DNA of 37,834 nucleotides. Source: a virus. The notes under the pieces were generated by a model. That model had not been told where the DNA came from. It did not search any database and saw only the letters and a program-made list of their open reading frames with translations. Location of the stretch: IMG/VR virus record IMGVR_UViG_3300040801_005339; one strand, given 5' to 3'. Of the stretch, positions 33,102 to 33,678 are shown one piece after another; the first letter of the stretch is position 1; each line of letters starts with the position of its first letter. A program made the translations under genes and the position numbers.

Positions 33102-33195
33102 TTGCACAATCTAATAAAGATTTTTAATTACTACTGTGCATTATAAAGCTGAAATATTGATAACTCTTGATATATCTTGGTTTTCTAATTGTGCA
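33102..33195 (+). promoter_or_regulatory. Promoter/operator-like module, copy A
   Basis: TTGCACAATCTAATAAAGATTTTTAATTACTACTGTGCA, then TTGTGCA 55 nt after the proximal site. Confidence 0.55.
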
Positions 33196-33398
33196 AAAAT
33201 TGAATAATTAAACAGAAACTAGCTTTTTAACAGGCAAAAGCGAAATATCAATTTGATTTATGCGGCGAGTGTTAACTCTTCAAACCCAGTCAGATAAGAT
33301 TCTTTATCCGATCGGGTAAAGTCTGAAATAGGTTAAAAGACAGCCTCAGAATAAAATGAAATTTTGAATATTAATTAGTCTTCGAAAATTGAATATTT

Positions 33399-33493
33399 TT
33401 GCACAACTCTATGAAGATTATTAATTGCCACTATGCATAATAAGCAACAATCAATCCAATTCTTAAGCTGGCTCTAGATTTTCAAATTGTGCA
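33399..33493 (+). promoter_or_regulatory. Promoter/operator-like module, copy B
   Basis: TTGCACAACTCTATGAAGATTATTAATTGCCACTATGCA, then TTGTGCA 56 nt after the proximal site. Confidence 0.55.
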
Positions 33494-33583
33494 TTGTTAA
33501 TTTAAGTAAAAAAATAGCTTCTGTAGATTTTAATTTGAATTAATTCACACTGTTATTATTTTGTATTTAAAAATTGAATATTT

Positions 33584-33678
33584 TTGCACAATTGAATAGA
33601 GATTTTTAATTACTACTGTGCATAACAAATAAAAATTAGTTCAATAGTCAAGCTCTGTCTAACTTATGAAATTGTGCA
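33584..33678 (+). promoter_or_regulatory. Promoter/operator-like module, copy C (closest to the replication operon)
   Basis: TTGCACAATTGAATAGAGATTTTTAATTACTACTGTGCA, then TTGTGCA 56 nt after the proximal site. Confidence 0.55.

Follow-up and report, generated by a model that had tools for sequence, protein, structure and literature searches.

The DNA analysed here is a stretch of 37,834 nucleotides from the virus record IMGVR_UViG_3300040801_005339, referred to below as the window. Its bases 1–117 are identical to bases 37718–37834, so the genome closes into a circle of 37,717 bp; an 87-amino-acid (aa) open reading frame (ORF) starting at 37613 spans the circle junction. The virus is a temperate myovirus with a complete circular genome of 37.7 kb. 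On its minus strand are the genes for a lambda-like packaging and head module and for a contractile tail. The packaging/structural operon runs to the left from 32749, and the rep-dnaB operon to the right from 33859. The non-coding region between these divergent operons holds three tandem copies, A, B and C, of the repeat module that is the subject of this work. A fourth full copy, D, and a half copy, E, lie elsewhere in the genome (Table 1). Further genes encode a Bro-N/Ant-like protein and an M15 endolysin.

The module family and its conservation

The left part of each full module is a 39-nt block, TTGCAYA-N5-ATRRAGATTWTTARTTRCYACTRTGCA. A pattern scan of the window gave four matches to this block, at 10512, 33102, 33399 and 33584, all on the plus strand and with 0 mismatches, as an earlier note on this DNA had reported. 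No further match appeared in the window even when up to 3 mismatches were permitted, and dinucleotide-preserving shuffles gave 0.00 matches versus the 4 observed. The block opens with a box that we call S1 (TTGCAYA) and closes with a second, inverted box, S2 (CTRTGCA); a third, S3 (TTGTGCA), follows downstream, so that the boxes in each module are oriented -> <- <-. The start-to-start distance from S1 to S2 is 32 bp in all four copies; from S2 to S3 it is 56 bp, except in A, where it is 55 bp. Reading of the sequence and alignment of the four modules thus bear out the three-site geometry that had been proposed. A full module spans about 95 bp.

Table 1. Positions of the modules, the second motif and the neighbouring genes in the window.
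Feature	Position	Strand	Remarks
Module A	33102–33195	+	block 33102–33140; S1 TTGCACA 33102–33108; S2 CTGTGCA 33134–33140; S3 TTGTGCA 33189–33195
Module B	33399–33493	+	block 33399–33437; S2 is CTATGCA, 33431–33437; S3 33487–33493; most diverged copy
Module C	33584–33678	+	block 33584–33622; S3 33672–33678; 180 nt 5' of the rep ATG
Module D	10512–10606	+	block 10512–10550; S1 is TTGCATA; S3 10600–10606
Copy E	7265–7283	+	left half only: TGCATAATTTAATAAAGAT, the S1 box plus ATAAAGAT; right half degenerate
Second motif AAAATTGAATA	33196–33206, 33385–33395, 33570–33580	+	abuts S3 of A; 3 nt before S1 of B and C
Tyrosine integrase (int)	7508–8539	+	downstream of copy E and the attP core
LuxR/NarL/GerE-type helix-turn-helix (HTH) protein, 87 aa	9518–9781	+	stand-alone
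Orphan gene, 227 aa	10629–11312	+	directly downstream of module D
RepE/Rep_3-type (WH1-WH2) initiator (rep), 223 aa	33859–34530	+	divergent; first gene after A–C
DnaB-type replicative helicase	34538–35923	+	after rep
Non-coding divergent region, 1109 bp	32750–33858		lowest-GC stretch of the genome; holds A–C

A position-weight scan of the window for full or partial copies found no full copy beyond A–D. Copy E, which was missing from the earlier list, is a perfect match to the left half of the block (TGCAYA-N5-ATRRAGAT), for which the expectation is 0.21 with one mismatch permitted. Its right half aligns loosely with the block and requires a 5-nt gap. E is placed in the gap upstream of int, in the attP region, 224 nt before the int ATG. 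A possible sixth, inverted partial copy at 32836–32861 was rejected: its score is marginal, and a local palindrome explains it better.

The conservation of the modules is uneven along their length. Pairwise identity among the copies is 0.72–0.92 in the 39-nt block (0.57 in the shuffle null) and 0.89–1.00 in S3 (null 0.49). In the 46–47-nt spacer between block and S3 it falls to 0.51–0.64, compared with a null of 0.50 ± 0.04, so the intervening 50 bp or so is indeed unconserved in sequence, as had been noted; the length of this spacer, in contrast, is constant within 1 nt. Inside the block, the 5 nt that follow S1 are free to vary, and the next 27 nt differ at one base among A, C and D. These three copies have little sequence in common outside the boxes. 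B and C form a 136-nt tandem duplication with 75% identity and a 185-bp period. Retention of the block, of S3 and of the spacer length alongside a randomised spacer sequence argues for selection on protein contacts and geometry and against recent duplication.

Aligned by their core, the 12 boxes give (t)(t)W-TGCAYA-R-T, with the 8-bp consensus TGCAYART. This consensus occurs 17 times in the window versus 7.4 expected, and 12 of the 17 occurrences lie in the modules or in E. The same short box therefore heads several transcription units at a frequency above chance, the pattern looked for in a phage operator set. The second motif, AAAATTGAATA, has exactly 3 occurrences in the window, compared with 0.18 expected. 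All three sites reported earlier are present, the middle one starting at 33385 rather than 33386; two of them fall in the B/C tandem duplication and are not independent. No other multi-copy direct repeat was found in the non-coding DNA of the genome.

Non-coding DNA makes up 9% of the genome, and all three independent module loci (A–C, D and E) fall inside that share. Each lies on the plus strand ahead of plus-strand genes, and of the four plus-strand gene blocks, three (int, 10629 and 33859) have one or more copies ahead of them. The only plus-strand unit without a module, 8964–10485, encodes the 87-aa LuxR-type HTH protein. Module D occupies the 143-bp gap between a stop codon at 10485 and the ATG at 10629; an AAGGA Shine-Dalgarno sequence directly follows its S3, which ends 22 nt before that ATG. 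D and C had been described as lying directly upstream of two plus-strand early operons. Their positions agree with this, D filling the gap before 10629 and C preceding 33859, except that gene 10629 lies within the block running from int to 12696 and not at the head of a plus-strand block. The observation that A and B have no ORF to drive holds, as no ORF of at least 24 aa follows either. The modules themselves are not explained by coding: small ORFs between S2 and S3 differ among the copies, and none is conserved.

The 5' part of gene 10629 (10657–10688) is similar over about 30 nt (z about 5) to 33269–33300, downstream of module A. This similarity suggests that the modules may have spread as cassettes of promoter plus gene start. 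Genes 33859 and 10629 were also considered as paralogues, which was rejected on comparison. We conclude that the family of five copies, with E as a left half, is real, selectively maintained and cis-acting.

No relative of the phage was close enough to extend the comparison. The exact 39-mer pattern had no match in the genome contig and viral contig collections, and a pattern based on geometry only had 0 matches in viral contigs. Its nine matches in metagenome contigs are attributed to chance, having no central similarity and no homology to the window. Searches with the 223-aa protein, DnaB and the large terminase subunit TerL found no close relative in any collection searched. The best TerL matches (a Leptotrichia prophage, Wolbachia WO and Ralstonia phages) are 33–40% identical, too distant for comparative analysis; DnaB had no match better than 1e-60, and phage and plasmid records searched by tblastn with the 223-aa protein gave none. 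In the other contigs that carry the 223-aa protein, the intergenic region is identical wherever covered.

Promoter-like sequences and candidate binding proteins

The 39-nt block had been likened to a sigma-70 promoter, a resemblance that proved to be poor. A canonical sigma-70 scan (16–18 bp spacer; -10 element with A as its second and T as its sixth base) called none of the modules. The best register common to the four full copies, TTTGCA-16-TTTAAT, scores 5.6 bits in A, 2.3 in B, 5.6 in C and 2.6 in D by weight matrix, where the genome-wide 99th percentile is 2.8 bits. The register given in the earlier note, TTGCAC-15-TTTAAT, ranks second. Both have T in place of A at position 2 of the -10 element, and a 17-bp register leads to TAATTA, which lacks T at position 6. 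The block has the length of a core promoter, with a -35-like TTGCA(C/T) and an A/T-rich -10-like stretch. If the module is a promoter, it is probably non-canonical and factor-dependent, and a weak sigma-70 score is as expected of a promoter of that kind. Several genes of the phage use Shine-Dalgarno sequences, and from this and the tRNA match to a gammaproteobacterial genome described below the host is expected to use ordinary sigma-70 promoters.

Canonical-looking sigma-70 sites are present elsewhere in the 1.1-kb gap, at 32807–32834 on the plus strand and 33054–33027 on the minus strand, at a frequency no higher than in shuffles. In the gap before 10629, the scan found no other plus-strand promoter-like site and no plus-strand terminator. 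No terminator was found between A, B, C and rep either, so that tandem read-through is possible. Judged by eye on the block sequence, the motif requirements of sigma-54, sigma-28, LexA, IHF, Fis, dif/Xer and resolvase res sites are not satisfied.

The gene immediately downstream of A–C, 33859–34530, has few detectable relatives. A word-indexed search of 5.8 billion proteins returned no homologue of its 223-aa product, and an exhaustive HMMER search of 1.8 billion representatives returned one, P0003 (E = 7e-6). P0003 contains the domains Rep3_N (4e-14) and Rep3_C (1.5e-15) and aligns with residues 24–223 of the phage protein (pairwise E 1e-13). A profile made from these two sequences retrieved 259 proteins, and the best 120 of the 259 all carry both Rep_3 domains, except the window's own protein. 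Single-sequence structure prediction was uninformative, with a predicted local distance difference test (pLDDT) score of 35. A structure model built on the Rep_3 alignment is confident only in the C-terminal winged helix; its fold matches in the PDB are RepE of mini-F at all of ranks 1–45, and RctB first appears at rank 47. On these comparisons we take gene 33859 to encode a divergent RepE/Rep_3-type iteron-binding initiator, which is followed by the DnaB helicase gene.

The closest Rep_3 relatives carry 5–7 tandem 22-bp iterons that end about 60 nt before rep. No such array is present near rep in this phage, where Tandem Repeats Finder (TRF) detected no run of three or more 17–22-bp tandem repeats. 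A Rep_3-type initiator gene does adjoin the repeats, as in an iteron replicon. Its position after the triple array makes initiator binding and origin function a serious alternative or additional role for the modules.

Two further observations concern the rep gene. The sequence TCTAAGCTT occurs 5 times in the window versus 1.0 expected, and 4 of these lie within rep/dnaB as close pairs (33951 and 33993 on the plus strand; 35357 and 35414 on the minus strand). These copies may be a coding coincidence (repeated L-S-F codons) or internal initiator sites. The AT-rich leader before the rep ATG (33766–33858) can form a long hairpin in which the last 17 nt before the ATG are paired (RNA fold z = -2.15), and the gene has no Shine-Dalgarno sequence. 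The hairpin may serve translational control of the initiator.

A second candidate to bind the boxes is the 87-aa LuxR-type protein. The operator of TraR, traO, is ATGTGCAGATCTGCACAT (bioRxiv 10.64898/2026.05.13.724834), and its 6-bp half-site core, TGTGCA/TGCACA, is identical to that of the phage boxes. Whereas traO is a contiguous 18-bp palindrome for one dimer, S1 and S2 form an everted pair at a distance of 32 bp, and the modules therefore do not qualify as lux/tra-type boxes, which are contiguous palindromes of 18–20 bp. The phage protein consists of the HTH only and is closer to NarL/VraR/EL222.

Other features of the genome

The 1.1-kb gap contains several features in addition to the modules. 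A large A/T-rich imperfect palindrome with arms of about 24–30 nt lies at 32842–32907, in the stretch from the packaging operon's start to module A (DNA fold z = -2.8). It has TTAxTTACTAGT in common with the right half of the 39-nt block, and could be an operator or be related to cos or to an origin. Just upstream of the first late gene (start 32749), a minus-strand hairpin followed by a U-rich run is found at 32767–32821, and a good leftward sigma-70-like site, TTGACT-16-TACAAT (33027–33054), lies upstream of this hairpin. The arrangement resembles a lambda pR'-tR' late region and as such would need antitermination. The A-rich motif TTAAAACAAAATCAA has 17 matches at up to 3 mismatches versus 9.4 expected. 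Six of them are in the 1.1-kb gap, in minus orientation at 32807–33022 and in plus orientation at 33738–33811, partly as A/U hairpins.

Next to int, on the minus strand, a tRNA-Thr(UGU) 3' fragment (about 7357–7420) lies in an attP-like segment (7305–7420). An exact 42-nt string of this fragment was found in 1 of 185,579 species genomes scanned, an uncultured low-GC gammaproteobacterial metagenome-assembled genome (MAG) from a brackish microbial mat study. In that MAG (contig L034, 7477–7607 and 7727–7758), a second, partial copy of the tRNA 3' end stands 135 nt from the first and has the appearance of an old integration scar. The int gene is flanked by a 35-nt imperfect inverted repeat, 74% complementary, whose inverted partner lies at 7437–7471. 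A second repeat, TCTTC..AACC...TCAGATAAGATTC, occurs just after int (8544–8569), between A and B (33277–33302) and at the 5' end of gene 10629 (about 10664–10688). The TCAGATAAGATTC repeats and the inverted repeat flanking int could be Int/Xis or other accessory sites. In the 424-bp gap from int to the Bro-like gene, terminator-like hairpins are present on opposite strands, at 8748–8775 (minus) and 8880–8904 (plus), which points to a short transcript that is not annotated or to insulation of int against the unit that follows.

A 160-nt direct repeat with 86% identity (863–1022 and 1520–1679) lies inside the 496-aa minus-strand ORF 674–2164, with a tail-fibre gene containing collagen repeats next to it. 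The repeat probably reflects a domain duplication in a receptor-binding protein.

Transcriptional control and replication as possible roles of the modules

Our favoured interpretation, to which we give a probability of roughly one half (0.5), is that the modules are factor-dependent promoter/operator modules that head the non-structural operons, and that a single phage protein binds the TGCAYART boxes. What the analysis shows is the family of repeats with its geometry and selective conservation, where and in which orientation the copies lie, and which genes neighbour them; promoter activity, the start site, the identity of the binder and the direction of regulation are what we infer. The module would be a protein-controlled promoter region of about 95 bp at the head of plus-strand non-structural transcription units. 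Its asymmetric 39-bp block would run from a -35-like box (S1) to the likely start site (S2) and contain the nearly invariant 27-bp core, and S3 would be a third box 55–56 bp further into the leader. A single phage-encoded DNA-binding protein would occupy all three boxes and, by bridging or wrapping the start site, switch the int, 10629–12696 and rep-dnaB-lysis units together. A, B and C would be three tandem copies feeding the rep operon; as tandem promoters or initiator sites, A and B do not each require an ORF to follow. The first candidate for the binder would be the RepE-like initiator encoded immediately downstream of A–C, and the second candidate, as binder or activator, would be the LuxR-type HTH protein encoded in the one plus-strand unit without a module. 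Both the position and the orientation of D and E ahead of unrelated operons, together with the remnant of gene 10629 after A, are predicted by a shared transcription-control element and not by an origin.

Several points weigh against this interpretation. The modules fail the canonical sigma-70 criteria, their -10-like hexamers lacking A at position 2 or T at position 6, and the two canonical-looking sites elsewhere in the gap, +32807–32834 and -33054–33027, could be the actual promoters. The continuous 27-bp core is longer than a simple operator, and the S1–S2 distance of 32 bp is too great for one compact dimer. An origin accounts just as well for three copies in the AT-richest 1.1 kb beside an iteron-type initiator. 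A, B and C are of common ancestry, which reduces the evidence to three independent loci, and the collections searched hold no related genome in which conservation of the modules could be compared.

The earlier note drew an analogy to the lambda OL/OR operators, which we find reasonable for a distributed operator/promoter family. Lambda OL/OR, the CI sites OR, OL and OD of TP901-1, and the CI sites of 186 with the flanking sites FL/FR are distributed phage operator sets with auxiliary downstream sites. The phage described here resembles them in having one short box at several promoters and several boxes per promoter region, one of them well downstream of the start, with a fixed spacing that suggests cooperative binding or looping. 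It differs from them in that the boxes are 8 bp long, non-palindromic and arranged -> <- <-, embedded in an asymmetric block of 39 bp whose 27-bp core is invariant, that no cI/Cro-type HTH gene is recognisable beside the boxes, and that three whole modules stand in tandem.

The main alternative is that A–C form an origin of replication, which we consider possible, if doubtful. The modules would be composite iterons of an unconventional, dispersed kind, each with a 22-bp full site ending in S2 and half-sites S1 and S3, bound by the RepE-like initiator to open the AT-rich DNA and load DnaB. D and E would be remote control sites for handcuffing or looping, comparable to F incC, the R6K alpha/beta origins and P4 crr. 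The adjoining gene encodes a Rep_3/RepE-type initiator and is followed by dnaB, the 1.1-kb gap that contains A–C is the lowest-GC part of the genome, and no other direct-repeat family near rep is fit to be iterons. In its minus-strand reading the core has the 8-bp box first and then about 14 conserved bases, and so resembles the F iteron, in which an 8-bp part is common to iteron and operator; the F iteron string has 9 occurrences in an F-derived vector. Five of the six perfect DnaA-box matches in the window coincide with boxes. However, the modules upstream of rep are 297 and 185 bp apart, far from the 22-bp tandem phasing of iterons, and the array that the closest Rep_3 relatives carry directly before rep is missing here. 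The copies at 10512 and 7265 lie directly ahead of unrelated operons and are co-oriented with them, and module A apparently derives from a cassette that included the start of gene 10629. The origin and the transcription-control reading are mutually compatible.

Comparison with known Rep_3/RepE iteron replicons (F oriS/incC with the repE operator, pPS10 and R6K) shows both sides. As in these replicons, a RepE-like gene lies immediately downstream, a longer direct repeat is accompanied by isolated inverted copies with one 8-bp part in common, as in iterons and half-iteron operators, distant extra copies exist, and AT-rich DNA and DnaA-box-like sequences are nearby. Unlike them, the phage spaces its repeats at 185–297 bp instead of about 22 bp, has no more than three copies near rep, separates S1 from S2 by 32 bp, and has remote copies that precede unrelated operons, and the replicon is an integrative phage with its own DnaB. 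Iteron initiators bind full iterons as monomers and inverted half-iterons as dimers, in the latter case repressing their own promoter (PMC3401445; PMC13028717). RctB of Vibrio cholerae chromosome II has a second class of sites, 39-mers, for negative control, and a truncated 29-mer at the initiator's own promoter (PMC3401445). The phage likewise has a longer site class of about 39 bp and a truncated copy, E. It differs in that its initiator is a 223-aa RepE-like protein and RctB has four domains, and in that there is no sequence similarity and no 11/12-mer iterons with GATC. With a RepE-like initiator and no iteron array, the modules were not assigned to the RctB type, and the equal length of the 39-nt block and the RctB 39-mer may be coincidental.

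It is unlikely that the modules are plain tandem sigma-70 early promoters, in which the extra conservation would reflect promoter strength elements and no dedicated regulator would be involved. In favour, the block is as long as a core promoter and correctly oriented, and in A and C the score of TTTGCA-16-TTTAAT exceeds the 99th percentile. Other phages are known to have early promoters in tandem: T7 A1-A2-A3 are strong canonical sigma-70 promoters of this type, and like them A–C are three co-oriented promoter-like units within a few hundred bp before one early operon, with no ORFs between. Unlike the T7 promoters, the modules fail the canonical criteria, none passing the scan and B and D reaching just 2.3–2.6 bits, and they carry an extra conserved box at +56. 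The invariant 27-bp core and this box at fixed spacing go beyond what contacts with RNA polymerase alone would account for.

We regard as similarly improbable that the boxes are host DnaA boxes, through which the modules would recruit DnaA for replication or for DnaA-dependent control of transcription. The pattern TTWTNCACA is perfect at 5 of the 12 boxes, and most of the others are one mismatch off. Across the genome, in contrast, the count of this pattern is at chance (6 versus 5.5), the information in the 12 boxes lies on TGCAYA and the 3' R-T with TTWT weakly conserved, and S1 of D has three mismatches.

A role at the level of RNA, such as a nut/put-like antitermination signal, a small RNA, or target repeats with S1–S3 pairing, appears very unlikely. 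S1 is complementary to S3 across 7–10 nt, and both substitutions in S1 of D preserve wobble pairing with S3. The consensus folds are nevertheless very weak (-4.6 and -6.5 kcal/mol), with 0 compensatory pairs on the plus strand and 1 of 12 on the minus strand; the A–B spacer folds no better than shuffles (z = -1.2), and there is no Rfam match and no conserved small ORF. That the modules are functionless, neutral leftovers of segmental duplications is hardly credible: the B/C tandem duplication and the remnant of gene 10629 in module A would fit, but flanks and spacers are at background identity while block, S3 and spacer length are kept, and every copy is non-coding and in a single orientation.

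In our view the module is a phage element of an ordinary kind, though unusually laid out, and its most likely role is control of transcription, with replication as a possible further one. Should the boxes be operators, they would mark out the regulon of a new phage regulator, in a host that is an uncultured low-GC gammaproteobacterium; otherwise they would make up an ordinary phage promoter/operator family. Since the phage has no close relatives and its initiator has one distant homologue, the repeat family is the only handle on its early-gene control. We hold only tentatively that the RepE-like initiator itself binds the modules, with dispersed composite sites (a full site and two half-sites, at 32 and 56 bp) replacing tandem iterons. 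If it does, the concentration of the initiator would gate early transcription, integration and replication through the copies at int and 10629, making the system functionally akin to the RctB 39-mers but in an integrative phage. Iteron-type initiators would then be able to work with widely spaced composite sites and to act as global early-gene regulators, which would be of interest for replicon evolution and for the building of minimal replicons.

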